Source: a virus
DNA: 64,000 nucleotides
Virus record (IMG/VR): IMGVR_UViG_3300031111_000010
Span: 1 to 64,000 of that record
Reading direction: 5' to 3' (one strand)
This document shows positions 8,283 through 34,294 of this stretch, in pieces. The notes under the pieces are model-generated. The model did no database searches, had not been told where the DNA came from, and worked only from the letters and a program-made list of their open reading frames with translations. The position numbers and the translations under genes were made by a program. Position 1 is the first letter of the stretch. Each line of letters begins with the position of its first letter.

Positions 8283-8293
8283 GGAGAAGTGAT

Positions 8294-8500
8294 ATGAGTG
8301 AATTAATAGATAAATATTTAGGAGAAGCATCTCTTGAAGAAATGAGCTATAAAAAGTTTGATAAAGAGATAAGTAGAGCAAAGAAAAACAAAACAAGATT
8401 GAAAAATTTAACATCTACTATTCATTCAATGGGTGATGGTGGAATGTTAAAACCTGATGAAGTAAAGAAACTTGTTGATAAAATCAAATCTTTAATGTGA
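8294..8500 (+). CDS. small basic putative internal protein
   Basis: MSELIDKYLGEA tag. Confidence 0.5.
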   Translation: MSELIDKYLGEASLEEMSYKKFDKEISRAKKNKTRLKNLTSTIHSMGDGGMLKPDEVKKLVDKIKSLM

Positions 8501-8516
8501 AAAAAAAATTAAAAAA

Positions 8517-8524
8517 TATAAATA
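8517..8524 (+). promoter_or_regulatory. T4-type late promoter TATAAATA
   Basis: exact consensus upstream of 8557 (AGGAGG RBS). Confidence 0.7.
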
Positions 8525-8556
8525 TATATGAGAAGTGAAAAAAGGAGGAATATATT

Positions 8557-9063: not shown

Positions 9064-9232
9064 ATGAAACAGCTATTAGAGGAAATATGGGAATTTCCCA
9101 TTACTCTTTTAGCATGGATCATATTTCATTTGGCATTAAGATTCGAAAATGCGAAGTGGCTTGACTATCTAACCGATTGGGTTGGATTGGACACAGAAGA
9201 AATTCTGAGAATATTAAATAAGTAGTCAATAG

Positions 9233-9273
9233 TGGCGAATAAGAGAAGAAAATAGCTTTTATTCGCCATTTTT
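9233..9273. terminator. terminator between convergent gene blocks
   Basis: TGGCGAATAA...TTATTCGCCA inverted repeat followed by T-run. Confidence 0.6.
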
Positions 9274-9295
9274 GTCTACTTAGAGCTTGCGACAT

Positions 9296-9640
9296 TTAGA
9301 GCTTGAAATCATCCTCTCCAAATTCATCATGAATCGAATGTTCCCGAATGAACTTATCAGCCCATATATTTTTTGCTTCATCACTATGACCATACCCAAC
9401 ACCAGTATATTCATCAATATATTGTTTTGCTTCTTTCAACCCCCATCCTGTTTGTGCTCTTACTTCTTTAATAGCAGCAATCTTTCTACCAGCACGAATC
9501 TCATTAGCAATAGCCATTACATCTGAGAATTTACCACCATATACTATTTTACCTTCACCAAATACAAAATCATTTGGATTGATATCTGATATAACAATAC
9601 AAATACCTCTACCGGGAATATTCATCAATTCACTTTTCAT
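9296..9640 (-). CDS. ribosomal protein bL12 (L7/L12) C-terminal-domain protein
   Basis: KIAAIKEVRAQTGWGLKEAKQYID matches the bL12 CTD core KIxVIKEVRxITGLGLKEAK. Confidence 0.8.
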   Translation of the reverse strand: MKSELMNIPGRGICIVISDINPNDFVFGEGKIVYGGKFSDVMAIANEIRAGRKIAAIKEVRAQTGWGLKEAKQYIDEYTGVGYGHSDEAKNIWADKFIREHSIHDEFGEDDFKL

Positions 9641-10117
9641 TTAAAATCTCCATGCAATCATTGTACTGATACACCCACCATCAATAGGCACTATCAGAGT
9701 TTTAAAACTTAATCGATCATATCCAATCTCTACTACAGGAGAGATACCAATAGAAAATCCTTCTACATTAGGAAACTTCTCCTTATATCCATACATCAAA
9801 CCAATCGGTAATGTACCCCTAATAAAAAAAGGATTATTAAAAGGTTTCCATTTAGGTGTCATGAATTCATATCCAGCAGAATATGTTTGATCATAGTGAG
9901 AATTCTTAAATGTCAAACCAAACCATTGATTATATGAAACCATAATTGCATTATTATTTTCGTTATATGGTCTTTTATCAGGTTCATCACGTTCACTCCA
10001 ATGATGTGCAGTTGGAGCATAACCAATGACCAAATCAGCAGCATTACATGATTTACATAAAAGAAATCCAATCAATACTCCAACCAACAAAATATATATT
10101 TTATATCCTTGAGTCAT
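9641..10117 (-). CDS. outer-membrane beta-barrel protein, PagP-like
   Basis: signal peptide, C-terminal WRF, HHW..YNENN..FKNSH..AGY motifs resembling PagP. Confidence 0.5.
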   Translation of the reverse strand: MTQGYKIYILLVGVLIGFLLCKSCNAADLVIGYAPTAHHWSERDEPDKRPYNENNNAIMVSYNQWFGLTFKNSHYDQTYSAGYEFMTPKWKPFNNPFFIRGTLPIGLMYGYKEKFPNVEGFSIGISPVVEIGYDRLSFKTLIVPIDGGCISTMIAWRF

Positions 10118-10476
10118 TTTCTTTCTCTTTCGATCTTCAATAGTGGGTTACCATCAATTATATCATCAGCCATATCGACATCCCATAAACCAGTACGTTC
10201 AGCTAAATCATAAGCATCTATTTTCCATTTATCATGCTTATCAAGATAATCAAGACGTTCACTACTCATATCCCATTGACCAGTATCAAAATAGGCACGA
10301 TCTACCTCAGAAACCTCTCTCCTTGGCGTAAAACCACCCTTATGAGCTTTAATACCTTTCATATATCGTTTGAAAGTATGCTTTACACCACCAGTGATAT
10401 CCCAAGGCCAATATGGTAAATGATCCTTAATCCATTTCCAGACATCTTTCGGATATATTTTCTTATCCCAATTCAT
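10114..10476 (-). CDS. hypothetical protein
   Basis: ATGA-coupled ORF in operon. Confidence 0.5.
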   Translation of the reverse strand: MNWDKKIYPKDVWKWIKDHLPYWPWDITGGVKHTFKRYMKGIKAHKGGFTPRREVSEVDRAYFDTGQWDMSSERLDYLDKHDKWKIDAYDLAERTGLWDVDMADDIIDGNPLLKIERERK

Positions 10477-10682
10477 AGTGCAAACTCCATTTCAGTAAAG
10501 AAATCATCACTTCTCACATTGGCAGCTTCTGCTTTTACTTCCCGAATATGCTTGCATTCAGCCCTGCGAAACTTCCAATGTGGACATGAGCAACCCCATG
10601 TTTCACCATCATCAGCCAAACTAACAACATACTCACGGTCAGAACTGTGACTTTTGACATACCACCTTGATACCCATTTCAT
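10473..10682 (-). CDS. SWIM zinc-finger protein with C-terminal tag
   Basis: WGCSCPHW...CKHI; ends FFTEMEFAL. Confidence 0.75.
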   Translation of the reverse strand: MKWVSRWYVKSHSSDREYVVSLADDGETWGCSCPHWKFRRAECKHIREVKAEAANVRSDDFFTEMEFAL

Positions 10683-10887
10683 AATAAATCTCCTTTTTGA
10701 TTTACTTTTAATGCTCTTTTCTTATCAGCTTCATATATAAGAGAAGAAATCCAAACAGGTATAAATAAAAAAACATACCATGAAACAATAGCTTCAATTA
10801 TTTCATGTATCAACCAATTATTAAAAACTGCATATATAATAACAAAAAGATTGATAACAGTAACAAATATAAATGTCTGTTTCATGA

Positions 10888-11271
10888 TCAAATCCTTTTT
10901 TCAAGGTTATTACAACATTCTGGACATCTATCAATCAAATCCAATATCGAAATATTTACATCAACCACTTTATCATAGTGTTGTGGATATGTCAAGGCTA
11001 AATCCGGTACATCCACAAGCGGTGAATTGTGATTATATCCACGTTTCAGCATTTCAGCAGCAAGCACATCATGCCTTGACTGTAAAGCATTCAACTGAAT
11101 CTGTACAACAGGATCAAATCGACCATCGATCTTATGCCCCTTCCGAAATGACGGTATATGTTTGTGAATCTCACCATGCTCACCTAAGAGATGCTTACGA
11201 CATAATATAGCGGGGTCTACCATCCACATACGAATTTTAATCACCACCTTTCTATTGTGTACGTTCTCCAT
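10888..11271 (-). CDS. pyrimidine dimer DNA glycosylase/endonuclease V family protein
   Basis: RMWMVDPAILCRKHLLGEHGEIH...RHDVLAAEMLKRGYNHNSPL. Confidence 0.75.
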   Translation of the reverse strand: MENVHNRKVVIKIRMWMVDPAILCRKHLLGEHGEIHKHIPSFRKGHKIDGRFDPVVQIQLNALQSRHDVLAAEMLKRGYNHNSPLVDVPDLALTYPQHYDKVVDVNISILDLIDRCPECCNNLEKRI

Positions 11272-12578
11272 TTACCGTAAAAGGAAGACAAAATAAATAG
11301 ACAAAAACACTTCCACGATGATCAGGATTATCATATTGAATTTGCTTATAGTCAATAAGTTTTTTCTTAACAACACCATGATATTTTTTTGTATTGATAT
11401 ATGTACCTACTTCTGCAACAAAACTCAATGGCATTTCAAAATTCTCAATAAGATTACTATAATCAGGTTTTAATGTTATACCATCAATAATGTTTACCAG
11501 ACATTTATTCATTAGTAGCACCTGTTCTTTCCAAGGCTTTTCATTTTCAGAAAATCCTTTTTAGGGTAAAAGTAAAACCATACCGGATTCATCAATCCCT
11601 TTTCCTTATCAGCTTTTGCTCTTTCAACATATACTTCATGAAACTTATCAACAGAAACAGTATCACTTTCCATCAATGTTAGTATTTCATCAGGCCGAAG
11701 ATAACCAGACCATTCAGTACCCTGATTGCATCTACATTTCTGAGCAATCTCATATACCTTTTTCTTCAGAGCAACACGTTTTTTATATATATCCAATGCT
11801 TTTCCCATTATACCCCCCATATAGCCATTTTGATAATGTTCATAACTTGAATAAAAATATACAAGATAAGAAAACCAATTGCCCATTTCAAAACCGTACA
11901 AATAATAGCATCACGTTTATTTGTATTATACACTTTCATTTTCTTCTCCTTATCTATTATATTGATCAGCAAACTTCTTAAGATCATCAGCATATTCCAG
12001 CTTGAATTCCCATGCTGTATATGGGTCTTCATTACCAAAAGTGCTATGGGTATCGTTATGCCAATCAGCACCACCCCATATGGACAAAGAATCCAAAAGC
12101 ATTGTAAGAGAAGGATTGTTCACCAGAATACCATTATAGATAAACAATCGGCAAGTATTATTAGGCGTTAAACTAAATTCAACTCTTTTCATTTTCTTCT
12201 CCTTATGATCATTCATACCATTTTCCTTCCCTGCCACAAAGTTCATCAAAACAATCTTCCATCATTTCATTTTGAATTCCATTTCCAATCAATCGAATCA
12301 TACGAACATTGTAACAACCAGCAGCACCACCCAATTTAGGATGATTACATACAAGCACATTATATTCAGCTTTTCCACAATGAATACAGTTAACACATAT
12401 CTTTTTCATTATAGCACCATTGCAAGAATAATAACGATGTTAGCGATAACCAGACCAATCATAATCTGATTCCATGCCTTATGATCAAAACGATATTCAA
12501 TCTCATCCATCTCAATATACTCATGATTAAAAAGGTCTTTGTTTTCCATGCCCATTCTCCTGTTTGACTATATAGAGA

Positions 12579-12594
12579 TGCACATCATATGCCA
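12579..12594 (-). promoter_or_regulatory. sigma54-like -24/-12 element
   Basis: TGGCAT-ATGAT-GTGCA just upstream of a minus-strand gene with AGGAG RBS. Confidence 0.45.
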
Positions 12595-12935
12595 AAATCA
12601 TCATCAAATTGTTTTTTATCGTAAATCATCATTAATCTACAACATACAGCAATAAAAAATACAAAAAATTCAAGAGGTTGAAATAGAATATTAAATAATA
12701 TATCAATAATGGCAATCCAGAACAGACTAAATGAAAATCCCATTATAACTATGAAAAGTAGGTAAAAAAATAACATTTTTTGGCAACCTTTGACAATTTT
12801 TGTAACACACATGCTTACGTCATATTCAAATAAAGCACCTATATCAAAATATAAAAAAAATGTCAACAAAAAACTTGACAATCAAGAATCGTGCCATATA
12901 TTACATTCAAATCAAGAAAAAAGGAGGAAATCATT

Positions 12936-13295
12936 ATGTTTTCAGAAAGTATTTTAGACAAATTATTTAATCCAACATTTAACACAGCGTTTGAAAGTGC
13001 ATATCAAAGAAACGATGATGGTAATATTGAAATGGAAATTGAAGTACCCGGATTTAATAAGGACACTCTAAATGTGGAAATATCCGAAGGTATTCTAACC
13101 GTTGAAGGTAAAACCCAAAAAAGACAAATCTATAAGCAATTCCAACTTGGTAATGTAGAAGATGTTCAAGCAATTGTTCAAGATGGTATTCTAACTCTAA
13201 CCCTGATGGAAACACAAAAACAGGTAAAAAGAATTGAATTGAATAAACCACAAATCGAAGATAAGAGAGATAATATAATCGACGCTGTTTCCTAA
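12936..13295 (+). CDS. small heat-shock protein Hsp20
   Basis: IEVPGFNKDTLNVEISEGILTVEG...AIVQDGILTLTL; AGGAGG RBS; TTGACA..TATATT promoter upstream. Confidence 0.9.
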   Translation: MFSESILDKLFNPTFNTAFESAYQRNDDGNIEMEIEVPGFNKDTLNVEISEGILTVEGKTQKRQIYKQFQLGNVEDVQAIVQDGILTLTLMETQKQVKRIELNKPQIEDKRDNIIDAVS

Positions 13296-13320
13296 TTCTA
13301 TTTTACAATCTTAATTATGA

Positions 13321-13352
13321 AATGCTCCTGAGAAATCGGGGGCATTTTTTTT
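13321..13352 (+). terminator. intrinsic terminator
   Basis: AATGCTCCTGA...TCGGGGGCATT hairpin plus T-run. Confidence 0.6.
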
Positions 13353-13370
13353 ACAAATTCACAATAAAAA

Positions 13371-13378
13371 TATAAATA
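13371..13378 (+). promoter_or_regulatory. T4-type late promoter TATAAATA
   Basis: exact consensus upstream of 13407. Confidence 0.7.
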
Positions 13379-13406
13379 TATATGAACAGATAAAATAGGA
13401 GATATT

Positions 13407-14120
13407 ATGCGATTTACAAAATACCTAAAAGAAGAAATTAAAATCAAAGGTGGACAATCAGCCGGGAAACTTGAATTAGACAAAACACCAGTAGAAAAGG
13501 CTAGAGCATTTGCAGAGAAAAAAGGTTTTGATTTAGATAAAGAAATACCAAACTTTGATGAGAACTATAAAAAAGCACAGCAACTAGCAAAATTGGGTAA
13601 GACCAAAAGAAAAGACATGCCTGTAATCAATGATGATGATGTTAAGAAATTCCAAAAGAGATTAGAAAACGGAACACTTGATATCAATAAGCCATTTGCT
13701 AAAGACCCTGATGTTGGTAGTAATCCATTTCCAGAAGGACTAAAAGGATTAGCAGCAAAGAAATGGTTAGAAAAAGGTTTGAAAGATGGATCAAAAACTG
13801 ATGATATAATAGACGTTGATATTACCAAAGTAGCAGTAAAAGATTTAAAGCCTATCCAAAGACAGATATATTATGATAAATCCATGGGAGCAACTATAGA
13901 AAATGGAGTAAAAACATCATTAAACTTTGTAACTAACAAATCATTTTTCATTATTAGTGGTGATAACTATATAATCGACGGTCACCACAGATATCTAACA
14001 GCACTAATACTTGATCCAAAAGCAAAAGTAAATGCACTTAAAATCAATCTACCAATTAAAAAACTATTACCAATGGCAACAGCCTATGGAGATGCTATCG
14101 GTAACAAGAGAAATGCATAA
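13407..14120 (+). CDS. ParB/Srx-like domain protein, putative internal protein
   Basis: LKPIQRQI...IISGDNYIIDGHHRY; MRFTKYLKE tag; own late promoter. Confidence 0.7.
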   Translation: MRFTKYLKEEIKIKGGQSAGKLELDKTPVEKARAFAEKKGFDLDKEIPNFDENYKKAQQLAKLGKTKRKDMPVINDDDVKKFQKRLENGTLDINKPFAKDPDVGSNPFPEGLKGLAAKKWLEKGLKDGSKTDDIIDVDITKVAVKDLKPIQRQIYYDKSMGATIENGVKTSLNFVTNKSFFIISGDNYIIDGHHRYLTALILDPKAKVNALKINLPIKKLLPMATAYGDAIGNKRNA

Positions 14121-15846: not shown

Positions 15847-16128
15847 TCATACCTCCATTTCTTTCTCATTTAAAAATTCATCTTTTTCTATTGATAAAAA
15901 GAACATATTAAAAAAAGGCCAATCCATCTGATGATCTTTAGTAGCTATATCACTAACTGAAATAGGATACTTCTGATATCCTTCTTTAACCCTATATCGA
16001 TATATCTCACCTTCTCTACAAAATATATCACCATCATTCAAATATCCATCCTCTATGCATTTACAATATTTCATAACACTATCATCCCAAATATCCCAAA
16101 GAACACACATTTTCCAATAATAACCCAA
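15847..16128 (-). CDS. hypothetical protein with C-terminal tag
   Basis: ends FLNEKEMEV; true start probably MKYCK overlapping the upstream stop. Confidence 0.55.
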   Translation of the reverse strand: MGYYWKMCVLWDIWDDSVMKYCKCIEDGYLNDGDIFCREGEIYRYRVKEGYQKYPISVSDIATKDHQMDWPFFNMFFLSIEKDEFLNEKEMEV

Positions 16129-16603
16129 TCCTGCATCTTAGCATTCTTAATAGCTTTATCAATATATTCAGGATAAATATACTTTTCTACTTTCTTTTTA
16201 TAATCATTTCTATACAAACGAATAAAAGGTTGAATACTTCCAATAGCATAAAGAACCAATGTAGTAATAATATACCATTTCATAATTTAATCCCTTTCCT
16301 TTATAGTTCTGGCAAATCTATCATTCATCTTCAAATATCCTGTTTATCTTCTCCAATAACTTTCTACTATTATCTATTCCAAAGATAGAAGTAAAAGCAT
16401 ATGTAAAAAGACATAAAATCAAAAAAGGAATATATCTCAAATAATACATCAATAATATTTCCTTATGTTATGATATGCAATCAAAGCCTTTTCTCTATCC
16501 CTATCTCTACCTTCATGTTCCTGCATAGCCATAATACAAGAAACAATCAAATCTTCTCTCTTAATAGGATCATTCAATATCTCTTTTATATCTATTCTCT
16601 TAT

Positions 16604-17029
16604 TCATTTATTTCCTTTAAATATGTATTCTGAACCATCATATATCAGCTTATGTTCTCCTATATAATCCTTTTCATCTATTCTATGTAAACTCAATGTT
16701 CTGCTTCTATTCTTTAATCTTCTAATCACTCTCTCAAAAGGATAATATATATGATCTATAAAAGAACCTCTATTACATAACTTTCTTTCAGCTTCTACCC
16801 TTTCGTTAAATATAGGGTCTTTTATATCATCTTTCCAATAAGTATCAACCAATATATCTAAATCACCAATCATAGGCTTGTCTGTAGTAAGGTAAGAACC
16901 AAATACATATAATGCTTTGACTCCATAAGTATAGCTATCATCGTTATTGATTTCTTTAGCTCTTTCAATAATCTCTTTTATTACTCTATCAGCAGTAGTA
17001 CGTTTAATTAAGCTCTTATTATGTCCCAT
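16604..17029 (-). CDS. minimal nucleotidyltransferase domain protein
   Basis: LYVFGSYL...GDLDILV (GS, DxD). Confidence 0.75.
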   Translation of the reverse strand: MGHNKSLIKRTTADRVIKEIIERAKEINNDDSYTYGVKALYVFGSYLTTDKPMIGDLDILVDTYWKDDIKDPIFNERVEAERKLCNRGSFIDHIYYPFERVIRRLKNRSRTLSLHRIDEKDYIGEHKLIYDGSEYIFKGNK

Positions 17030-17068
17030 TATCCTATCCTATCCAATCTTAAATCCTTTCATATCTCC

Positions 17069-17548
17069 TTATATATCTATCTTAGGTAATATAGGAAGTA
17101 CAGTAAGTTTAACAGTTCTTTTCCTAACAGCCAATTGTCTTTCCAATCTATTAATGCTTCTTTCGCTAATATATATTTTGTTTTTATATTCTATGATACT
17201 ATTAACAGCTTTCATAAAACATTCATCACTTTTAATCTCAGGATAATCAACAGCAAGAAAATCAACTGTATTCTTTGTAATCTTATCAAATATCTTTAAC
17301 TCATGTTCTGGAAACTTGTCTATCAAAAACAACTTGATTTCAACAAGCAAATCATCTGCCTGTTTCCTATAGCTTTCAATATCCTTCTTTTTCTCTTTAA
17401 TCTTTTCTATCTCAACAGTATGATTATAATAGGTACACAACTGAGCAATAATACCTATAATAAATATAACAACACCAATTGTAATAAGTTCAATAGGTCC
17501 AATGAACCATGTTACGCAAGCCCAAAGCAAAGCAATAAGATAAATCAT
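17069..17548 (-). CDS. membrane-anchored coiled-coil protein
   Basis: two N-terminal hydrophobic segments; TTGACA-N17-TATGGT promoter and AGGAG RBS upstream. Confidence 0.55.
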   Translation of the reverse strand: MIYLIALLWACVTWFIGPIELITIGVVIFIIGIIAQLCTYYNHTVEIEKIKEKKKDIESYRKQADDLLVEIKLFLIDKFPEHELKIFDKITKNTVDFLAVDYPEIKSDECFMKAVNSIIEYKNKIYISERSINRLERQLAVRKRTVKLTVLPILPKIDI

Positions 17549-17624
17549 TAAAATCTCCTTTCATATGAAGCGACCATACATCTTTTGATATGATCTGTCA
17601 ATAGAAAAATATAAAAGCTAAGTA

Positions 17625-18053
17625 TTAAACCTCAACCAATATACCCTGTTTATGAATCAACTTCTTATCTCTAATAACAGTCATAGGTAATAGCATAGCC
17701 GTACCCTTTTGTTTTCTATCCTGTTTCAATACAAAAACAAATTTAATCATATTCGTTTTATACCATAGTGTAAATTCTAATTCATTATAATTCAATTCCT
17801 TCTTATATAATCCTCTTGGCTTACAGGTATGATTCTTAATACATTCAATATCATCTTTCAAAGTATCTGTATTATTAATAAACTCAGTAAGCATATGATC
17901 TAGTTCTTCAATCTTAATACATGGTTTATTTCTTGAGTGATTTAATCTTTCTAATCCAAAATGTATGGATTCTTCTATATGAGTGATACCATAATTACCA
18001 AGAACCATCTTCCATTTATTTAAAAACTCAGTTCTTTCAGATGCAGTAATCAT
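17625..18053 (-). CDS. hypothetical protein, paralog of 55931-56446
   Basis: shared NKPxIxxxELD and KGTAxxxPxT motifs. Confidence 0.55.
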   Translation of the reverse strand: MITASERTEFLNKWKMVLGNYGITHIEESIHFGLERLNHSRNKPCIKIEELDHMLTEFINNTDTLKDDIECIKNHTCKPRGLYKKELNYNELEFTLWYKTNMIKFVFVLKQDRKQKGTAMLLPMTVIRDKKLIHKQGILVEV

Positions 18054-18813
18054 AAAATCTCCCTTTTCAATCGTTTCTCTTGCTCATCTAATTTATCTCT
18101 CAACTCAAAAGGATTCTCATGAACATAGGACCATGCATTAATCCCAAACATATCCTGCATTAGACGCTGTTGAGTAATATTCACAATAGCACCATTAGTC
18201 AGTTCATCTCTAAGCATGATCAATTTCCTTTTCTTTTTCTAACTGTTCACAATATTCTTCCCATTTCTTTTCATTAGGATCATTTTCATTAGGATCATAA
18301 TCATAATCAACATAATCAGGATCATCATAGTGTTCATCAAACCCATTGCCGTATGCTTCCCTTGCTGCTCTTTCAAGTTCATTCATTTAAATTCTCCCTA
18401 TAATGTCTTAATGATTCCGATCAAGCAATAAGCACAAACACAATAGCAAGTAAGTTTAGCAAAAAGCAAAAACCACACTTCCCCATGACTCAATTTCTTA
18501 ATTGCTTCTTTCTTATTCAAAAGACCTCCTTGGTTAATGTTAATCATATGCGTATCTTATATCTTTATATATTGGTCTGTCAAGAGAAATCTTTAGTGTA
18601 TATAAAAAATATATAAAATGGTCAAATAATATATATTTTTAGCAAGAAATTATGCATATTTCATACCAAAAACACCTGAAAACCCGCATGAATAGGGCTT
18701 ATATATAAAATATGTAATAAAAACAGCTATATAGGGGTGATATATGGGGGGGAATATATGCCGTACCCACCAAGACACGAAAAAAATTGAAAAAGTGCTG
18801 TGAGAATGATATC

Positions 18814-19235
18814 TGGCATAGGTCTTGCATCGAATCGCATTCAGAATATATATTTTTTATATACTCTTGATGCTCATGTGAATATATAATTTTTATATAT
18901 CTCATTTTTTTTTATTTTTTTTTTGGTAAGCAAGAGTGATGCCAACTTTCCATTTTGCGTTGCGATGCACAATCATGAATTTCCGAAAAAAATCTTTTTA
19001 TTTTTCCTTTATATATCAGGGTCTTATATATAACGTCTGATAAGATATAATATGTAAAATCGTGAGCTAAGTGCTTGATATATAAACGAATATAGGTTTT
19101 TTGAGGTTTTTTAATGGTAGGCATAATCTACCATAAATAGTGTGTAAGCAACTATCGTGCCAACCCTGTATATCGGATATTGGCACATGTATTGCATATA
19201 TCGCTGAAATTGGCGAAATTGGCATATTCCTTGCA
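18814..19235. promoter_or_regulatory. cluster of five sigma54 -24/-12 motifs and two IHF-consensus sites in a non-coding region
   Basis: TGGCA[CT]-N5-TTGC[AT] at 18814(+), 18929(-), 19147(-), 19181(+), 19220(+); WATCAR-N4-TTR at 19014 and 19068. Confidence 0.65.
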
Positions 19236-19719
19236 TATAGCCGCATCCATAGGGGTCCACATGGTCCACCAGCGAAATCCATAGAACCCATAAGAGCCAT
19301 AAGCAGAAAGGCACATGCAGATTTTACTGAGTTAATTTTACTTGCAGGGGTGTCTGAGCTTGTGATAGACCGCACTATTCGCACACTTTCACTAACTCAT
19401 TGTCAGATTTTTTTCCAGATTCGCTATATATGAAAATTTTTTGGGAAAATTTTTGAAGAAAGTGCCTCAGAATGATGTCCAGAGTGACTTTTCTGGTAAC
19501 TATCTGACTTTTTTAGACATATTTTCAAAGAATCGACCTGAAAACGGATTTTTGACCGTTTTATGACGGTTTAAAAAAATTTTGGGGAAAAAATCGCAAA
19601 AAGTGCCTCAGAATCACTATAATTATAAATATCTGATATCTAAGGAAATATCAAAATATATACAGAAATATATAAAAAAGTATATAAATTGATATCTTGT
19701 TGATTTCATTAATAAAAGT

Positions 19720-20037
19720 CTATGTTGGTGGGGGGTCAAGTATAGAAAATTCCTCAAAGGTAATAAAGTCTTTTTCTGCAAACCATTTTTCATGCCAACC
19801 AAAAGGATAGCCTTTCATTTTATGAGTATAGTTATGGAAATCATATTCTTTAAAGAAATGTGTTTCTCCCATCATCTCAATCATAGTGTTAGTTAATACC
19901 CAATCCAATTTTATTCTATTCAAGGTGATACTCATTCTTATTACACTACCGTCTTTATTCCATTTATCAGCTATAGGTTTAAAACGATTTTGGAATTGAT
20001 CTACTGTTATTAAGGTATATTTTATATATTCATTCAT
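19720..20037 (-). CDS. hypothetical protein with near-terminal tag
   Basis: FITFEEFSI six residues before stop. Confidence 0.5.
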   Translation of the reverse strand: MNEYIKYTLITVDQFQNRFKPIADKWNKDGSVIRMSITLNRIKLDWVLTNTMIEMMGETHFFKEYDFHNYTHKMKGYPFGWHEKWFAEKDFITFEEFSILDPPPT

Positions 20038-20321
20038 AGCGTAAATTCATCCTTATCAATAAAGTTATCTACAGGTTCTTCTTTAATCCAATCGTCATGA
20101 TAAACCCAATGATCATCAGTAAGTTCTTGTACCCATCTATAGCCATTATTGTAATCATGTCTATGCCTACCACCTTCTATTAATGGTTGTACTTCTATGA
20201 TGGTTCCAAAGTATCGTATCATGTCTTTATTAATAAAGAAGTTGCCTTTATAATGATAACCATCAGATTCACTTCCATCTAAATAATCCAGTTCTGATAT
20301 ATTTTTTAATAATATTTTCAT
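20034..20321 (-). CDS. hypothetical protein with C-terminal tag
   Basis: ends FIDKDEFTL. Confidence 0.55.
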   Translation of the reverse strand: MKILLKNISELDYLDGSESDGYHYKGNFFINKDMIRYFGTIIEVQPLIEGGRHRHDYNNGYRWVQELTDDHWVYHDDWIKEEPVDNFIDKDEFTL

Positions 20322-20698
20322 ACGCTAAACTCACATTGTTTGATGAATCCTATATCTCTATTATGGTACATCGACTTCCATATATTTCTAAAGTAATTTC
20401 TATCCACATCTTTAGTCCATATGCTGTTATGTTGTTTTAAATATCTACCATGGATATCTGTAGCATAATTGGATATAAAGAAGATAGCATTAGTATCACC
20501 TGTACGTTGCCAGTATTCCCTTATTACATCACGGTACATAAAATCATCCTTGGCATCTATATTAGTCATGAAGGATAGACCCTTGTTTTTTATAAAGTCA
20601 GTATCAGGACCGGCTGAATGATTTTTATATGGTGGTACATTTAATCTATCATAGTGACCATGGATAAAATCTGAGGATTTTTCATTCCAATAACTCAT
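20318..20698 (-). CDS. hypothetical protein with C-terminal tag
   Basis: ends FIKQCEFSV. Confidence 0.55.
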   Translation of the reverse strand: MSYWNEKSSDFIHGHYDRLNVPPYKNHSAGPDTDFIKNKGLSFMTNIDAKDDFMYRDVIREYWQRTGDTNAIFFISNYATDIHGRYLKQHNSIWTKDVDRNYFRNIWKSMYHNRDIGFIKQCEFSV

Positions 20699-20976
20699 AA
20701 TACAAACTCACTTTCTTCTATGAACTCTTGATCTTTTGCATATATTATTCCTGTCCTATGTTCATATCCATAACAAGTAGATTTATCATTATCGATACTT
20801 ATTAAACCGGGACATGAATAACAGTCATTACATTTACCGGGACAGAAACGATCTATTTTGGTTATTATTCCTTTTTTTCTTTTTTCATTTTCAGTTTCAG
20901 GATAACCTACATAAACCTTTATTTCCATACCTATCTTTAGATGTTCATATGCATCATGTTTGTAGTAGATACTCAT
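20695..20976 (-). CDS. Cys-rich hypothetical protein with C-terminal tag
   Basis: ends FIEESEFVL. Confidence 0.55.
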   Translation of the reverse strand: MSIYYKHDAYEHLKIGMEIKVYVGYPETENEKRKKGIITKIDRFCPGKCNDCYSCPGLISIDNDKSTCYGYEHRTGIIYAKDQEFIEESEFVL

Positions 20977-21488
20977 AATACAAACTCACTTTCTTCTATA
21001 AATAATTTTCTTGGTCTTTCTTTCTTTAATGGTTCTAATTCTTTCTTTATTGCTATATATTCATTTAAAGATGTTATTGCTGGTCTTTGAATACCGAAAA
21101 AATTCTCTTGACTTTCTATCCTTCTTACTATGCTTTTTATCTGTGAATGTTTTGCTTCTAGATGTCTTAGATGTTCCAGTTTCTTTCTGTAATAGGAATA
21201 AAGAGCATCTTGTTTTGATCTATAGGCAAATAGCTTTCTTGGTGTAATATTATGTTCCAATTGCTTTTTTATCCATTTCTTGTATCGTGTATTAACTTCA
21301 TTTGTATGGTAATGATAGTCTGGTACGATCCAATAGCCTTCAGGGGTTTCTCTGTATGCTCTATATCTGTTTTCTATTGGTTCTGCATTATAGCTTCCAG
21401 AACATGGGTCTTGATATCGATAGAAATAGATTTCTTCTCTTATCTCTATTGGTGCCATCTCATCAAATCGTAGTGGGAATATGTTCAT
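20973..21488 (-). CDS. hypothetical protein with C-terminal tag
   Basis: ends FIEESEFVL. Confidence 0.55.
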   Translation of the reverse strand: MNIFPLRFDEMAPIEIREEIYFYRYQDPCSGSYNAEPIENRYRAYRETPEGYWIVPDYHYHTNEVNTRYKKWIKKQLEHNITPRKLFAYRSKQDALYSYYRKKLEHLRHLEAKHSQIKSIVRRIESQENFFGIQRPAITSLNEYIAIKKELEPLKKERPRKLFIEESEFVL

Positions 21489-21676
21489 AGTTCCATATCG
21501 CTTTCTGTTATGAAATTATTATTTGTACATAATTTTTCCATATCATCTATTTGAACATAGTGAGCAGCACAATAAAATGGTAGAGTATCTACATCTAGAG
21601 TTGTAATTTTGTTTACTCTCAGATTACAGCAATAGTCAGTGTATCGTTTTCTACCTGTTACCGGACAAGTTATCAT
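21485..21676 (-). CDS. hypothetical protein with C-terminal tag
   Basis: ends FITESDMEL. Confidence 0.55.
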   Translation of the reverse strand: MITCPVTGRKRYTDYCCNLRVNKITTLDVDTLPFYCAAHYVQIDDMEKLCTNNNFITESDMEL

Positions 21677-22176
21677 AGTTGCATATCGCTTTCTGAAAGG
21701 AAGTCACCTAACTTCTCTCTTTCTTCTTTGCATAGTGGGCATTCTTTATGGAATCTGGTATCATAGAATACTGTATTATCACCATGCTTAGTACATTGAG
21801 TAAATATATTATATATTCCCGGTTCACCTTCTCTAAGTTCTTGGAGTCTTTTGATTGCTTTATCTATTTCTTTTATATCATCTATATCTATTTCTGCTGA
21901 TGATTGATTGGAATAGGTAGAAGCAGAAGAAGAACCAAAAGATATAGGAGATAATCGATCAGATATAGGAGATAATCGATCAACCCTTTTGGGAATATCG
22001 ATATCACCGTATTCATCTGTCATTATTGAATGATGTATAGGCCATTTGAATTCAGGTTCTTCTGTAGGTTTTCTTGAAATGAAATTAAGTTCTCTTTCCT
22101 TCCAGTAGTTAACAGGATCAGTTTTTTCTTTGATTGCCTTATATACATTCTCATATAAGTCTTTGAATTTCCACAT
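21673..22176 (-). CDS. hypothetical protein with C-terminal tag
   Basis: ends FLSESDMQL; CxxH..CxxC. Confidence 0.55.
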   Translation of the reverse strand: MWKFKDLYENVYKAIKEKTDPVNYWKERELNFISRKPTEEPEFKWPIHHSIMTDEYGDIDIPKRVDRLSPISDRLSPISFGSSSASTYSNQSSAEIDIDDIKEIDKAIKRLQELREGEPGIYNIFTQCTKHGDNTVFYDTRFHKECPLCKEEREKLGDFLSESDMQL

Positions 22177-22403
22177 ATTTATATCCTTATATATACCTTT
22201 TTATATACTTTTTTATTTTTCAGAAAGTGAGTATTATTTTATATATCTCTTAGCAGTAAAAGCAATGAACGGATAAAATAATACGATTGTAAAAAACTGC
22301 TTTACATATTCCCATAGAGTAGTATTCGATCTTTGCTCTTGGGTAATTACTATTAGCCATATGATTAATCCACATACAAAATATATTCCAAGTAAAAATG
22401 ATA

Positions 22404-22718
22404 TCATATTTCCATTTCCTTTTCGTTTATAAAGTCTTCTGGTTCTGGTTCTGCTACTTGAATATTAGAAACTTTACAATAATGTCCTTTTGATTTCTCC
22501 CACCATTGTAAACATTTTGAACACAGGTAATATTGTTTTTTGCCTCTATCACCTTGACCCCAATATATCTGTATTGGAATTTCTACTTTCTTCTCATGAT
22601 ACATACAGGAAGATAGACTATAAGTTTCATCCTTGCTTGAAATATAATGTCCAAGTTTATGACAATGTTCAGTTGAAAAATTATAATGAACACATGATAA
22701 ACAAATTAAATCACTCAT
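22404..22718 (-). CDS. Cys/His-rich hypothetical protein with C-terminal tag
   Basis: ends FINEKEMEI. Confidence 0.55.
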   Translation of the reverse strand: MSDLICLSCVHYNFSTEHCHKLGHYISSKDETYSLSSCMYHEKKVEIPIQIYWGQGDRGKKQYYLCSKCLQWWEKSKGHYCKVSNIQVAEPEPEDFINEKEMEI

Positions 22719-23125
22719 AGTTCCATATCTTTCTCAGTGAGAAATTCCTCTCTTGGTTCTGTTTTTAATTGTATCTCCCATCTTCCATTTAAAAATATGT
22801 ATTTTATTTGACCTAATTGTGGCTTATTGGGAATTACGTTTCGTATCTTTATATCACCTTCTCTTGGTTCCCTTCTATGTCTATTATCACCAAGAGGACC
22901 ATATGTTGCCCATCCATCAGAGTTAAGTACTGATATATTTTCACCCCATCGTTCTCTAAATTCCTGTTCTCTCCTTGCAAGATGCTCTCTCATTCTTCCT
23001 TGAACATTGGCATGTGTTCTAAGCCTATCCAGATGTTCATTGTATTTTTTATTTTCTTTGTATTTAATAAAGAAAATAACAACCCATGCAAGAACTATTA
23101 TACCCATAAGAATAAATCGTATCAT
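22715..23125 (-). CDS. membrane-anchored protein with C-terminal tag
   Basis: N-terminal TM; ends FLTEKDMEL. Confidence 0.55.
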   Translation of the reverse strand: MIRFILMGIIVLAWVVIFFIKYKENKKYNEHLDRLRTHANVQGRMREHLARREQEFRERWGENISVLNSDGWATYGPLGDNRHRREPREGDIKIRNVIPNKPQLGQIKYIFLNGRWEIQLKTEPREEFLTEKDMEL

Positions 23126-23353
23126 TAAAATACTCCTTTAAAACAGAAATCAATAATAGAATATCCCACAATGAAAAATACTAATATCATAAACAATAAA
23201 ACAAGTTGTGCTCTCATGTCATTACCTCACTTATAAAATATAATAGTTTATTGATATAAGGAAAAATCATTTCCAATCCACCAAAGAAAATAAACATCAA
23301 CGCAAACCATATTATAAGTCCTGCTATCAAACCACAACTATCTTTCGCTATTC

Positions 23354-23740
23354 TTATAATAATTTTAAATCTCCTGTGATTAAATCGATTTCATCAGACC
23401 ACCAAGGACCAATAGCACAACAGGTATAAGTAGGTTCCTTAAATTCAGTCCTACCGGCATCCTTGATCAATGCACAAGGTATCTTTCTGAACTTGGCATG
23501 ATCATGTACAAAAATCAATACATCTTCATTAGGAACACCAACACATATCTTTACAAATGATTCTTCAAGCCATTGTTGAGCAGGATCATTCTTAGGAATA
23601 AAGATTCTATATTCCTTACTGCCTGAAGCATAGCAATTCAACAAAACAGCTAATGATGCATGAGCACCTTGAGCAACCATTTTACCTTTTCTCATATTAA
23701 GGTCTTTTCTCATTACGATAACTTGTTTAACTTCTCTCAT
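23354..23740 (-). CDS. pth2: peptidyl-tRNA hydrolase Pth2
   Basis: KQVIVMRKDLNMRKGKMVAQGAHAS...IKDAGRTEF..PTYTCCAIGP...ITGDLKLL. Confidence 0.92.
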   Translation of the reverse strand: MREVKQVIVMRKDLNMRKGKMVAQGAHASLAVLLNCYASGSKEYRIFIPKNDPAQQWLEESFVKICVGVPNEDVLIFVHDHAKFRKIPCALIKDAGRTEFKEPTYTCCAIGPWWSDEIDLITGDLKLL

Positions 23741-23900
23741 ATTTCGTTTACCTTTAACCATTCTTTATATGCATGTGTATACTTTCTTGGATTCAGTTGG
23801 GTATAAAATACAAGTGTATCTCTATCGATTTCATATCCATCAGCATTAATAATATCAGTTTTAACTGAATCTTCTCCCATATAATATATTTTAAATTCTC

Positions 23901-24092
23901 TCATATTTCCATTTCCTTTTCTTCTATGAACTCTATTGCTTCCCAATAAAGATATTCCCTATCAATACAATGAAGTGTACCTGAGAAATAAACATCATTG
24001 GGTATGCCCTCATATTTCTCTCTATCGATACACCATCCTACTGAACATCCACCCCTTTGACCATGCTTACATGTACTACAACTTATTTCCAT
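23901..24092 (-). CDS. hypothetical protein with C-terminal tag
   Basis: ends FIEEKEMEI. Confidence 0.55.
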   Translation of the reverse strand: MEISCSTCKHGQRGGCSVGWCIDREKYEGIPNDVYFSGTLHCIDREYLYWEAIEFIEEKEMEI

Positions 24093-24484
24093 TATAACAT
24101 CATTTCACTTTCAGATATAAAAGCCTTTGCTGGTTTGACATACATTCTTTTTGTAACAAACTTCTTTTTTTCGTATTCAGCTTCCCATTTAATATCAGCC
24201 AGTGTAATGTTATGTGGTATCTCTTTTACTATCCTATATATACCCCTGTCAATAATTTTTAAATAACCAGCACCTGTCAGATAGCTTCGATATGTATCTA
24301 CAGTTCTCTCTTTATAACCATTTCCAACACATTCCATCATTAAATTATATCTAAATATTATATTGTGATCAAATCTTTCATTGATATAATTTCGCATAAA
24401 ATCCAGAAGTGGTACTCTACCTCTTGGTCTATATCTTGGTAAATCTTCAGGCATCTCTATTCTAAATCCCGGCATGTGTATCAC
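24092..24484 (-). CDS. putative winged-helix protein with C-terminal tag
   Basis: TVDTYRSYLTGAGYLKIIDRGIYR; ends FISESEMML. Confidence 0.5.
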   Translation of the reverse strand: MIHMPGFRIEMPEDLPRYRPRGRVPLLDFMRNYINERFDHNIIFRYNLMMECVGNGYKERTVDTYRSYLTGAGYLKIIDRGIYRIVKEIPHNITLADIKWEAEYEKKKFVTKRMYVKPAKAFISESEMML

Positions 24485-24633
24485 CTTGTTGTACTTCTAA
24501 TAATCTTTCAAGTTCAGTTACTTGTCTGACCAAATCCTGAATCATCTTCTCTTTTTGTTCTACATTATATCGTAGTGACTCTATAAGAGAATCTTTATCT
24601 TCTTCTATTTCTTCTGGTTCATTTCCAAGTATA

Positions 24634-24909
24634 TCATTGAACATAAAAATCTTCCTTTGTTAAAAAATTGGCTTGTGGTCCTGTACATTCATATGGTAAT
24701 CTTTCTTCTGATAATACTTCTCCTTCCTGATTAAAGTATATAAGGTTATGCCATCTCATATGACCACTACCGCTTTTCTGTACGCCTTTCATCAAACCAC
24801 AATACCTACATACCTTTACTTCATCCACCATGATAATTTTGGTTCCTATCCTATGTTGTTTTCTGACTTTACATCGATCCTTCTTCTCTTTTTTCCAACT
24901 ATGTCTCAT
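24634..24909 (-). CDS. hypothetical protein with near-terminal tag
   Basis: ends FLTKEDFYVQ. Confidence 0.5.
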   Translation of the reverse strand: MRHSWKKEKKDRCKVRKQHRIGTKIIMVDEVKVCRYCGLMKGVQKSGSGHMRWHNLIYFNQEGEVLSEERLPYECTGPQANFLTKEDFYVQ

Positions 24910-25171
24910 ATCAAATACATTCCTATCACACCACTAATATATACCATAAAATATGCAAAGAAAACATACATAGAAACTTTATCTTTTATATTAACCAAAA
25001 AAAGCAATGGAAGACAATATAAAATTCTCATCAGCATTGCTTTATTTAATGTCCATCCAAAATAATTCATACACCACAAAATAAAACTATTACTTTCTTC
25101 TCCAATAAAAATCGTGAAGACTGAATCTAATATAATTAATAAAAACAATGCTATTGTCCATTTTCTAATTC

Positions 25172-25555
25172 TCACAGTTTCATATCACTTTCTTCTATAA
25201 ATTCTTTATCTTCTTTATCTAACCTGAAAGGGAATTTTAAAGGTTTCCATTCGTTTCTCATTTTCGTTGATTGATATTCTATTACTAATTTTTCCAGTTC
25301 CCTTCTTTTCCATTCTATATTATAATCATTTAATGCAGGTTCAACACAATATTGAAGTTCTCTTACTATGATATCAAATGCTCTTTGAGATATCCTTCTG
25401 CCTCTAAACATCTGTATGACACGTTCAATCAATCTATCTTCAGTTCGATGTACTTCCCTTTGATATAATTCTCTTTCTCTTTCTCTCTCCAATCTTTCAT
25501 ACTGTCCATTGAGAATTCTTCTTTGAACTTCATTCCAATCATTATTAGGTGCCAT
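25172..25555 (-). CDS. hypothetical protein with C-terminal tag
   Basis: ends FIEESDMKL. Confidence 0.55.
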   Translation of the reverse strand: MAPNNDWNEVQRRILNGQYERLERERERELYQREVHRTEDRLIERVIQMFRGRRISQRAFDIIVRELQYCVEPALNDYNIEWKRRELEKLVIEYQSTKMRNEWKPLKFPFRLDKEDKEFIEESDMKL

Positions 25556-26268
25556 TATATCTCATCCATTGAAAAGATAATTGAATTGCTTTTCAGTTCC
25601 ATTATCTCTTTTCTTAATGATCTTACTTTATTTTCCAACTTACCAATCATGTTATTTCTCTTTAATACCCTATCCTTATAATCTGAAATTATTTCTTCTT
25701 TTCTTTCAAGCGAATCATATAAATTCTCTAATTCCATTTTTACATCACATTCATCACAATCAACACGATTACTGAAATGACCAGTTTCAATAAAATCATC
25801 CATCATACGTTGCATCATAAAAGCACTATTACCAGCTACTTCAAATAGTCTGTTCAGGAACATAATCATAGAATCTTTATTCACATGATCTTTCCAACCT
25901 CTGATTTGTGTATGCATATCATCCTTTGTTTCGAAAACCGCTTTTGTTTCTTCTTGGATTTGTGCTTGAACTCTGGCATGTAATTCTTCTCTTACATCCC
26001 AAACAGAAGACTCTTGAGAATCTTCTGTTTCTCTTTCCATCATTATTCTTCTTATTAATTCACTACGGTTCTGTCTTTCCGTAGTATTACTTTCTGCTGC
26101 TCTACGTTCTAGATTAGCTGCCATTTCCATGACTTCAAAAGGTCTTAATGATTTACTAAAATTATTAAGTTTTATCCATCCATTATTAGAACGAATATTA
26201 GGAAAACGCCCATGAAGATTATGATAAGCTGTTGTATAACGTCTTATTGCTGACACAGTTTCATTCAT
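25555..26268 (-). CDS. coiled-coil hypothetical protein
   Basis: long ORF coupled to neighbours. Confidence 0.5.
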   Translation of the reverse strand: MNETVSAIRRYTTAYHNLHGRFPNIRSNNGWIKLNNFSKSLRPFEVMEMAANLERRAAESNTTERQNRSELIRRIMMERETEDSQESSVWDVREELHARVQAQIQEETKAVFETKDDMHTQIRGWKDHVNKDSMIMFLNRLFEVAGNSAFMMQRMMDDFIETGHFSNRVDCDECDVKMELENLYDSLERKEEIISDYKDRVLKRNNMIGKLENKVRSLRKEIMELKSNSIIFSMDEI

Positions 26269-26677
26269 TTTATTCTACCTTTATATTTTCTTGAAATTCT
26301 CCATCCTCTACTGCCAGTTCCATACGATTGTTCTCATATTTCACCTATATCATCAAATAAATTTTCTTCTTCTTTTTCTGGTGGTAAATCAATCCAACTA
26401 CCATCATCTGTATTCCAACCATCACTACCTGCATTCCAAGAATCACCTGTATCCCAAAGGGTATCTTTATTTTCAGCAACCATATATAATGATTTCAATT
26501 CATTATCCCATTCATACATATTTCCAGTTTTTATAAAGATTTCTTCCAATAGCTCATTAGAATAATAGCTACTTGGAAAATTCTCTGATTCTGTTACTCT
26601 AATCCATACCCCTCTTTTCTCTAATTCTCTATCAGGAAATACACTTTTGTATAGCTTCATTACAGATTCTATTTTAT

Positions 26678-27055
26678 TCATAATCCATATACTCCTATCT
26701 TAGCTTCACCATGACCACAAGTAGGACATTTTTCTTCGACCAACCAATAGTTAACATGGAATTTGTTAAGTAATACTTGTTTGATTATATCGGCATGGCA
26801 GGGTTTAGGTGAGCAGTAGCAAATGAGATTACACTTACCATGTTCAATTAGATATGCTTCGATAATCTGCAATGCTGAGATTATTGGTCTATCACGCTTT
26901 TGGATAGCGTTCTTAAGCATTGCTCCATATCGTTGAAGTACGATAGGTCTTAATTCTTCATCTGTTAACTTAAACGGATTGGCTAACGGTGAAGGTCTAC
27001 CTACATAAAATCCATCTCCTGTCCAATTTTTTTTGTTGCGTACAGTGATTTCCAT
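26678..27055 (-). CDS. DUF4326 family protein
   Basis: YVGRPSPLANPF...LICYCSPKPCHADII. Confidence 0.85.
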   Translation of the reverse strand: MEITVRNKKNWTGDGFYVGRPSPLANPFKLTDEELRPIVLQRYGAMLKNAIQKRDRPIISALQIIEAYLIEHGKCNLICYCSPKPCHADIIKQVLLNKFHVNYWLVEEKCPTCGHGEAKIGVYGL

Positions 27056-27399: not shown

Positions 27400-27489
27400 T
27401 GGAGGAAAGGACAGGATTCGAACCTGCATTAGTGTTACCTAAATAGAGTTTTCAAGACTCATCGACTATTCCCCACTGTCAACCTTTCC
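27400..27489 (-). tRNA. tRNA-Ser(UGA)
   Basis: GGAAAGG/CCTTTCC acceptor stem, GAGT-CTTGAAA-ACTC anticodon arm, long variable arm, GGTTCGAATCC T-arm, encoded CCA. Confidence 0.85.
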
Positions 27490-27537
27490 TTATATGTCAC
27501 CGATTTGTTTAGTATTCATCTTCTTACCTTTTAATAC

Positions 27538-27624
27538 CGGAGAGTACTGGATTTGAACCAGTGCGAGTGTTACCCCGACCTAGGATTAGCAATCCTGTGC
27601 ATTACCATACTCTGCCAACTCTCC
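27538..27624 (-). tRNA. tRNA-Ser(GCU)
   Basis: GGAGAGT/ACTCTCC acceptor stem, G73, AGGA-TTGCTAA-TCCT anticodon arm, long variable arm, GGTTCAAATCC; CCA not encoded. Confidence 0.9.
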
Positions 27625-34092: not shown

Positions 34093-34294
34093 TGCAGTTG
34101 CTGTGCCAAGATTGTAATTTTTTTTATATAGTTATTTCAGTCACTTGAAAAATTAGTATTTTTGATTGGGTAAAAAACATGACAAAAATTGTCAAACTTA
34201 TGACAAAAATTGTCCAGATAGTTATATACTTTACTCCGGTAAATTTGTAAGTACTTGATATTATTACAAGTGAAAAGTTGGCACAGGGTCTGCA
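34093..34294. promoter_or_regulatory. divergent sigma54 promoter pair with shared tandem palindromic enhancer and IHF site
   Basis: TGGCAC-N5-CTGCA at 34093-34108(-) and 34279-34294(+); TGACAAAAATTGTC[AC] at 34180 and 34201; TATCAAGTACTTA at 34248-34260(-). Confidence 0.7.

Follow-up and report, generated by a model that had tools for sequence, protein, structure and literature searches.

Why should a phage carry a tight group of promoter-type elements in DNA that holds no genes? The question is raised by IMG/VR record IMGVR_UViG_3300031111_000010 (G000, 81,176 bp), whose first 64,000 nt form the stretch analysed here (the window). Within it lies a 1.2-kb non-coding island with five boxes of the form TGGCA[CT]-N5-TTGC[AT], resembling the -24/-12 elements of sigma-54 (RpoN) promoters. 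Promoters of this class are an odd choice for a virus because their firing requires an ATP-driven activator. The cluster could consist of promoters for regulatory RNAs, or it could act to park or sequester a host factor in short supply, and the phage offers a clean internal control for this question, with complete gene-driving sigma-54 cassettes beside an enhancer-less, gene-free cluster. An earlier note on the window had proposed a decoy array trapping host sigma-54 RNA polymerase, promoters for small RNAs, or a transcription-primed replication origin or genome-end region. That interpretation is borne out in part: the sigma-54 identity of the sites is supported, the small-RNA and decoy roles are compatible with the results, and for an origin or an end there are weak hints. 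Our tentative preference is that the island boxes would be sigma-54 promoters that depend on an activator and yield non-coding, antisense or leader transcripts where two early gene blocks meet; we infer every functional step assigned to the island from its sequence.

Sigma-54-type boxes in the island and in gene-driving cassettes

A pattern scan of the window recovered all five boxes, each exact and at the position and on the strand that the earlier note had given, within 422 bp (18814-19235). The motif is enriched: 100 dinucleotide-preserving shuffles of the window gave a mean of 0.12 boxes and a maximum of 2, none of the 100 reaching the five present in the 64 kb. Moreover, these are the only TGGCAY-N5-TTGCW matches in the whole 81,176-bp record, where a reversed control pattern gave 0, and the companion contig (G001, IMGVR_UViG_3300031111_000007, 132,451 bp) has no box with TTGCW. 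The GG/GC core is exact in 5/5 boxes, and a T or C precedes TGG in 5/5, in keeping with the pyrimidine at that place in the extended sigma-54 consensus. Boxes 2 and 3 have GTTGGCAY-N5-TTGCTTAC in common, and boxes 4 and 5 are 80% alike over a 25-nt unit, both ending in TTGCATATA as the gene-driving cassettes do. All five are genuine, more than chance would give, and confined to one spot of the genome.

The island itself also proved to be non-coding, as had been claimed, with no credible open reading frame (ORF) between 18548 and 19719 on the evidence of ORF lists, PHROG, alternative genetic codes and Rfam. Its largest ORFs (translation table 11), of 105 and 97 aa, have GTG starts, lie on opposite strands, overlap each other and run over the boxes. 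The four largest had no match in PHROG, recoding of TGA as W or TAG as Q gave no convincing frame, an Rfam search of 17500-20500 at E <= 1 returned 0 matches, a tRNA search found none within the island, and a DNA similarity search of the island against 50,697 phage records gave no match. On a greedy ORF map the island is the only gap above 1 kb in G000; the single such gap of G001 holds small reverse-strand frames below the 75-aa cut-off (by eye) and two tRNA genes. The flanking proteins (105 and 142 aa) have no relatives in viral contigs, and Pfam and PHROG gave the flanks no useful name. The further claim, that no credible ORF lies downstream of any box, holds for the three plus-strand boxes, box 5 aiming into gene-free DNA and back toward the upstream gene array. 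It fails for the two minus-strand boxes, which face a leftward gene block starting at 18547, 382 bp from box 2 and 600 bp from box 3.

Support for the boxes as sigma-54 sites is indirect but strong, and comes from the remainder of the phage. G000 and G001 (81 and 132 kb) very probably make up one genome of ~213 kb; the first 127 bases of G000 match the start of G001 on opposite strands (100% over 126 bases), and the two are rated 36% and 66% complete, respectively. A looser scan, for TGGCAY-N5-[CAG]TGCA, found boxes at 12579(-), 34093(-), 34279(+) and 62676(-) in G000 and at 13931(+), 22129(+) and 131548(-) in G001. These belong to cassettes of constant order: paired TGACA-N5-TGTCA palindromes (TGACAAAAATTGTCA type) spaced 20-21 bp apart, a -24/-12 box 75-95 bp downstream of the pair, TATATA, a conserved short leader and, 30-45 bp downstream of the box, a ribosome-binding site (RBS) and an ATG. 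The arrangement points clearly to the use of sigma-54 boxes by this phage, in the canonical enhancer-dependent layout, to drive genes. Because the seven cassettes show the full bacterial layout, the island boxes may be taken seriously as sigma-54 sites. The island is not itself a member of this PilR-type cassette family, having no palindromes, no RBS and no ORF. The 34093(-) cassette leads an operon with rtcB.

The origin of the cassette layout was traced with a degenerate scan for the palindrome pair across one genome per prokaryotic species, which returned 83 loci. In 29 of the 80 listed the title points to a Desulfobacter-type organism, Thermodesulfobacteriota or 'delta proteobacteria', and 28 of the 80 examined have a sigma-54-like box within 260 bp. 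The prepilin N-methylation motif PF07963 was present in 16 of 40 ORFs directly downstream of the bacterial boxes, while large ORFs upstream of the pairs carried a sigma-54 interaction domain (Sigma54_activat, 8 of 24) or a PilS-like membrane domain (2 of 24). In bacteria the pair stands between pilS/pilR-type regulator genes and sigma-54-driven pilin genes. Since the same pair adjoins pilS/pilR-type and prepilin genes there, the enhancer and promoter in the phage cassettes appear to be copies of those at PilR-type pilin genes, the label 'PilR' being taken from gene context. The hallmarks of Pseudomonas PilR sites, as set out in PMC6058289, differ from the TGACA-N5-TGTCA pair. The exact double palindrome TGACAAAAATTGTCA-N6-TGACAAAAATTGTC was also seen in unrelated viral contigs, including IMGVR_UViG_3300002727_000012 and one that is GC-rich; the records of these contigs contain no sigma-54 box.

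The pilin promoters of Desulfobacterota and other bacteria thus have the enhancer pair of the seven phage cassettes. The island boxes resemble such RpoN (PilR-regulated pilin) promoters in their exact core, in the T or C before TGG and in the presence nearby of sites like those of integration host factor (IHF). Unlike them, they have no such enhancer, RBS or gene, and they stand in both orientations within 422 bp.

Box arrays in relatives and in other viral contigs

Clusters of the box recur outside this phage. At least 120 viral contigs have two exact boxes 5-35 bp apart, against 13 for the reversed control pattern, which is twofold looser than the box pattern. The array loci include near-duplicates, which were removed by exact array sequence for the counts of tracts and orientations. 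Because of this recurrence, whatever explains the island would apply to many uncultured phages. Whole array-bearing records hold 19, 16 and 15 boxes, compared with 0-1 for the control. In the 514 boxes among the array loci listed, positions left free by the pattern are biased (T/C in 85% before TGG, G in 72% at position 7, A/G in 77% at position 8), and these preferences agree with the extended sigma-54 consensus.

Among the matches listed there were 137 distinct clusters, 105 one-directional and 32 mixed. The one-directional clusters pointed toward the next ORF in 58 cases and against it in 17, 9 had no ORF and 21 lay inside ORF calls. These calls come from a crude greedy longest-ORF map, and the 28 of 137 clusters lying 'inside ORFs' were excluded from the orientation counts. 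Called ORFs flank 81 of the listed clusters on both sides, and in 49 of these cases the two ORFs diverge. A run of five or more G or C was found within 200 bp of 87 of 116 listed arrays (75%), against 26% of control windows, most commonly as a C-tract that precedes the first box by 5-30 bp. For 105 listed tandem arrays, the nearest tract was a C-rich one upstream in 39, a G-rich one downstream in 14, a G-rich one upstream in 11 and a C-rich one downstream in 5, and 36 had none. Common forms are direct arrays with 26-28-bp periods and face-to-face palindromic units of 35 bp repeated every ~47-51 bp; strictly alternating arrays recur in viral and metagenome contigs. The arrays span 31-64% GC and many unrelated contexts. 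The activator domain PF00158 was found in 0 of 5 array-bearing records scanned, Rfam gave 0 matches on 20 array loci (140,781 bases), and a search for cultured relatives of the array-bearing contigs gave no useful match. A metagenome scan for the tandem form of boxes 4 and 5 yielded 6 loci, none related to this phage.

These arrays are like the island in being often gene-free, often near G/C tracts and free of an activator gene (five records). They differ in being tighter (periods of 26-28 or ~50 bp) and mostly one-directional or alternating, whereas the spacing in the island is loose (34-218 bp); unlike the typical array, moreover, the island shares its genome with canonical cassettes.

The arrays bear on a rival explanation, in which the boxes are sites of some other phage or host protein, such as operators, partition or packaging sites or hairpins, and their likeness to sigma-54 sites is incidental. 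It would account for the face-to-face 35-bp palindromic units seen in many contigs and in the relative described below, and for the strong association of G/C tracts with arrays. A further point for it is an AT-hook-type protein family of ~128 aa, found in 28 of 150 sampled array-flanking ORFs (Pfam AT_hook was called in 15 of 150), one member of which (L021:2944-3324) has the N-terminal motifs KKRGRPKK and RGRPPG; the family has no counterpart beside the window's island, and tblastn against 50,697 cultured or deposited phage records found none. We consider this explanation improbable, given that the same box serves in seven canonical sigma-54 cassettes of this very genome, that the pattern-free positions match the sigma-54 consensus and that the arrays are spread over so wide a range of GC content and so many unrelated contexts.

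Among relatives, a counterpart of the island was found in G013 (IMGVR_UViG_3300035698_007246), a 224-kb T4-like record with a terminase 42% identical. It has three exact boxes within 175 bp, and several near ones, in a gene-free gap of ~470 bp (102221-102691) between convergent genes. Its boxes form face-to-face pairs 3 bp apart and adjoin a GGGGGACCCCCGGGGG tract (G5AC5G5), GAGAATCA repeats and AAAATTTTT tracts. Box 3 matches a G013 box at 16 of 17 bases, and the 14-mer ATTCGCTATATATG is exact in both islands (E = 0.003 in a small search). This 14-mer is unique within the 224 kb of G013 and, across the records of 32 relatives, exact in G013 only; a single one-mismatch match, in G019, lies inside a 510-aa ORF and was set aside as chance.

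A further 28 relatives' records, all fragments (terminase 47-76% identical), include 6 with boxes, 10 boxes in all against 1 for the control; the single box of G026 is intragenic. Conservation of the motifs in related phages, which the earlier note had made a test of its proposal, is therefore seen in the distant G013, while the 28 fragmentary records, whose coverage of the region is unchecked, contain no cluster. G019, a closer relative (terminase 74% identical), keeps the cassette with TTGCT boxes, including a divergent pair around palindromes.

Possible promoters or docking sites

As promoters, the island boxes would work as follows. Host sigma-54 holoenzyme would dock at the five boxes as closed complexes and fire once an activator ATPase arrives. 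That activator would be other than the pilin-type, PilR-like one of the cassettes, or would act without a specific site; a host protein is the simplest assumption, because neither phage contig has a recognisable activator. Boxes 2 and 3 would send transcripts with long leaders into the leftward early block, beside its sigma-70-like promoter, and box 1 would give an RNA of ~85 nt ending at two A/U hairpins and a U-run. From boxes 4 and 5 a rightward non-coding RNA would run toward the 3' end of the upstream array, acting as antisense or through head-on collision. Boxes 2(-) and 4/5(+) would diverge from an IHF-like inverted repeat in the geometry of divergent enhancer-dependent promoters, and the whole island could serve as a boundary under sigma-54 control and a hub for regulatory RNAs between the two early blocks. 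We favour this reading because arrays elsewhere are mostly promoter-like, boxes 4 and 5 resemble the cassettes, box 1 has a terminator-like unit, and boxes 2 and 4/5 diverge from the IHF-like repeat.

The IHF-like repeat corrects an earlier detail. Of the two IHF consensus sites proposed, at 19014 and 19068, only the latter, on the minus strand, is a strict match (WATCAANNNNTTR), the former having one mismatch, and matches to the consensus are about as frequent in the window as chance predicts (12 against 12.5 expected). The two IHF-like sites are the arms of the inverted repeat, whose exact site (19068-19080, -) sits between the divergent boxes. Furthermore, the right arm matches 12 of 13 bases of the IHF-like site at 34248-34260, between the enhancer and promoter of the 34-kb cassette.

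The predicted box 1 transcript folds with -12.4 kcal/mol (18838-18925, +; z = -3.70), a stability reached by 0 of 200 shuffles. Promoter, hairpins and U-run, the pattern of a terminated small RNA gene, come together at box 1 only. The terminator scan did not call this unit because its stems have no G-C pairs. None of the relatives carries the same RNA, and Rfam gave 0 matches for it.

Several results weigh against the island as a set of working promoters. The predicted transcript of boxes 4 and 5 (19245-19420, +) is less structured than its shuffles (z = +1.48), and downstream of these boxes there is neither an ORF nor an Rfam match. The palindrome of the cassettes, with up to 3 mismatches, is absent from 18400-19800, which has no proven enhancer otherwise, and PF00158 was found in neither G000 nor G001. 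A lookup of public runs for the stretch matched one DNA run and no RNA run. The mixed orientation of the 32 clusters noted above is another point against promoters, and the two boxes of a G013 pair cannot both fire productively because they stand face to face, 3 bp apart. Conservation of the island is carried by G013, because no cluster occurs in the 28 fragments, and tblastx found no homology between the genes flanking the G013 boxes and those of the window. The sigma-54 DNA-binding domain PF04552, searched for in G000, was not found there.

A possible but doubtful alternative is that the island acts as a sink or roadblock for sigma-54 holoenzyme, its boxes being high-affinity docking sites that are rarely or never activated. 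Closed complexes parked there would shield the two leftward blocks from read-through, and the replicating genome would draw scarce sigma-54 holoenzyme away from host promoters, for example those of pilin genes. Such a role is consistent with boxes that have the promoter core and lack the enhancer of every gene-driving cassette, with their mixed orientation and with the 3 of 5 that have no downstream gene. It also fits the G013 pairs, the strictly alternating arrays that recur elsewhere and the 17 of 75 listed tandem arrays with a called downstream ORF that point against it; the other 58 look promoter-like and tell against a sink. The scan for intrinsic terminators called 0 in the island, which is a further point in favour of a sink or roadblock, since something else may then stop read-through. 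A sink would, however, compete with the phage's own seven cassettes. The argument that the island boxes are better than those of the cassettes, and hence decoys, was dropped: the boxes in working cassettes of G019 are likewise perfect (TTGCT), and a perfect consensus is hence no mark of a decoy. Some titration of the scarce factor would follow in any case from a replicating genome with twelve strong sites.

Put more widely, clusters of enhancer-less sigma-54 sites might be a widespread, undescribed phage element that captures host sigma-54 RNA polymerase, as sink, roadblock or landing pad, here alongside a hijacked PilR/sigma-54 pilin switch. We hold this broader proposal, too, to be doubtful. 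If it were true, infection would both exploit and starve the pilus and sigma-54 programme of the host. Whatever the clusters do, working it out could also reveal a new viral route to sensing or disarming host state (pili, stress responses, RNA repair).

Known systems offer partial models for each role. The E. coli datA locus, with its DnaA boxes and an IHF site, is a titration locus, and 6S RNA sequesters sigma-70 holoenzyme. The island is similar in combining high-affinity sites for one host factor with an IHF-like site in ~1 kb of non-coding DNA, so that a sink is possible; we know of no sigma-54 sink. Intragenic or orphan sigma-54 sites of E. coli, as described in PMC4591121, bind the holoenzyme in an inactive state, which again speaks for a sink. 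They are like the island boxes in having no obvious gene to drive and in holding polymerase inactive, and differ in being scattered singles inside genes, where the island has five clustered in gene-free phage DNA.

Pseudomonas phage YuA depends on sigma-70 and sigma-54 promoters, according to a summary in PMC10914365 (citing Ceyssens et al. 2008). It likewise borrows the host sigma-54, but through one sigma-54-like promoter region, and it has neither a box cluster nor a gene-free island; 0 exact boxes and 1 with one mismatch were counted in its genome (4 for the control), and for want of exact boxes YuA was rejected as a model for the arrays. A Pectobacterium phage is credited with a putative sigma-54-like protein in a passage of PMC7693777, and a preprint describes an AAA+ protein of a T4-type phage, Htm, that resembles sigma-54 activators in structure and has no GAFTGA motif (bioRxiv 10.64898/2026.10.06.757011). 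Our literature search found no paper on arrays of sigma-54 boxes in phages and, for the use of sigma-54 promoters by a phage, only YuA.

Table 1. Features of the island and of the phage, in window coordinates unless a contig is named
Feature	Position	Strand	Remark
Box 1, TGGCAT-N5-TTGCA, TGGCATAGGTCTTGCA	18814..18829	+	converges on box 2
Box 2, TGGCATCACTCTTGCT	18929..18944	-	toward leftward gene block; 382 bp to its first start codon
Box 3, TGGCACGATAGTTGCT	19147..19162	-	back to back with box 4; the two -24 ends are 18 bp apart
Box 4, TGGCACATGTATTGCA	19181..19196	+	followed by ATATA, like gene-driving cassettes
Box 5, TGGCATATTCCTTGCA	19220..19235	+	starts 39 bp after the start of box 4, in tandem
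Gene-free island	18548..19719		between two leftward (-) gene blocks
Sigma-70-like promoter, TTGACA-18-TAAGAT, for leftward block	18554..18583	-	10/12 positions match
Inverted repeat, arms are the two IHF-like sites	19004-19026 and 19068-19090		arms 83% complementary
Predicted short transcript of box 1	18838..18925	+	two A/U hairpins (18847-18863, 18883-18899), then T9AT10
TATATA-N5-TATATA palindrome	18599..18615		others at 18847, 18883, 19657, 19669; N9 pair at 19010
G-tract segment, GGGG...GGGGGGG	18729..18765	+	50-85 bp upstream of box 1
41-nt repeat ending AAAGTGCCTCAGAAT, two copies	19433-19473 and 19574-19614	+
Looser third copy of 41-nt repeat	18779-18811		adjoins box 1
14-mer ATTCGCTATATATG	19419..19432	+	exact in analogous G013 island
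TATAAATA in island	19624..19631	+	points right
Cassette spans	12579-12805, 34093-34294, 62676-62833; G001 13811-13946, 22022-22144, 131548-131669
Divergent boxes 34093(-), 34279(+)	34093..34294		around paired palindromes TGACAAAAATTGTCA at 34180 and 34201
tRNA genes and RtcB	G001 7126-13753 and elsewhere; 27400-27624, 31237-32448

A/T-rich DNA, contig depth and the nature of the phage

The long A/T tracts reported for the island are present. Of the 114 TATATA hexamers of the record 19 fall within 18501-20000, and the island has 5 of the 6 TATATA-N5/6-TATATA pairs of G000, G001 having 0. This DNA brings in a replication origin primed by transcription in the manner of T4 oriF/oriG, where a promoter and a downstream DNA-unwinding element give an R-loop primer. 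Boxes 1 and 2 would then flank ~85 bp of nearly pure A/T, and the stretch between these convergent boxes (18840-18925) does consist of A/T palindromes and T9AT10. The confinement of TATATA palindromes to the island is iteron-like, IHF-like sites are present, and the island is the sole long gene-free region of the genome without tRNAs. The early promoters A1-A3 of T7, arranged in tandem, offer a second parallel. As in these two systems, promoters here lead into A/T-rich DNA and several of them are grouped in one control region. Both phage systems, however, use sigma-70-type promoters, whereas the island is of sigma-54 type and gives no skew signal; the GC-skew check that the earlier note had suggested revealed no inflection at the island. 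Moreover, no replication gene adjoins the island, and RNA made from the leftward boxes would be C-rich across its G-tract, while it is G-rich RNA that favours R-loops. The idea that the G-tract marks an R-loop origin was dropped, the orientation of the tract being inconsistent among tandem arrays. An origin in the island is unlikely in our judgement.

Contig depth can be read in favour of an origin as well. In the source run, one Logan contig spans exactly 18372-20011 at a depth of 349; depths beside it are 146 and 170-181, and further left they are 36-55. Coverage is poorly measured by contig depth, read starts being invisible in contigs, and a mixture of strains would explain the figures as well (flanks from 36 to 181): the pattern fits an island common to more co-occurring strains than its variable flanks. 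The coverage check proposed earlier thus gave about twice the depth of the neighbours, but no second copy in the assembly.

The same doubled depth over exactly this interval could come from a genome end or a terminal repeat collapsed in assembly, which we regard as highly unlikely. The terminase is of T4 type, and T4-type phages package by the headful and have no fixed ends. A search of the assembly found no second island copy and no island sequence at either contig end, and the contig breaks coincide with loose ends of variants, as in a strain mixture. One source-run contig joins 18256 to 19331, skipping all five boxes; with 21 letters on its shorter side this observation is weak and was not relied on.

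Its genes mark the phage as a distant T4-like myovirus, with an identifiable tail sheath, large terminase and RtcB ligase in G000. The terminase shares ~36% identity with T4-like cyanophage terminases, and the sheath ~37% with its counterparts in T4-like Vibrio phages. The sole public run with the stretch is a DNA run from a marine sediment metagenome; the phage is uncultured, large and from marine sediment. The T4-type late promoter motif TATAAATA occurs 23 times in the window (13.7 expected), in many cases directly upstream of structural genes.

The genome has 22 tRNA genes, 15 of them in one cluster adjoining a cassette, in addition to the RtcB RNA ligase. Such a toolkit would fit a role in mending or replacing tRNAs that host anticodon nucleases have cut. 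On the minus strand of 15847-27000, many otherwise unrelated small proteins have a common C-terminal motif (for example ...FIEESEFVL, ...ITESDMEL and ...INEKEMEI), which is absent from the flanking genes of G013. Three large proteins (818, 1614 and 624 aa; 43411-55039) start with a common domain of ~200 aa, which matches the PHROG 'tail tube' family (phrog_45).

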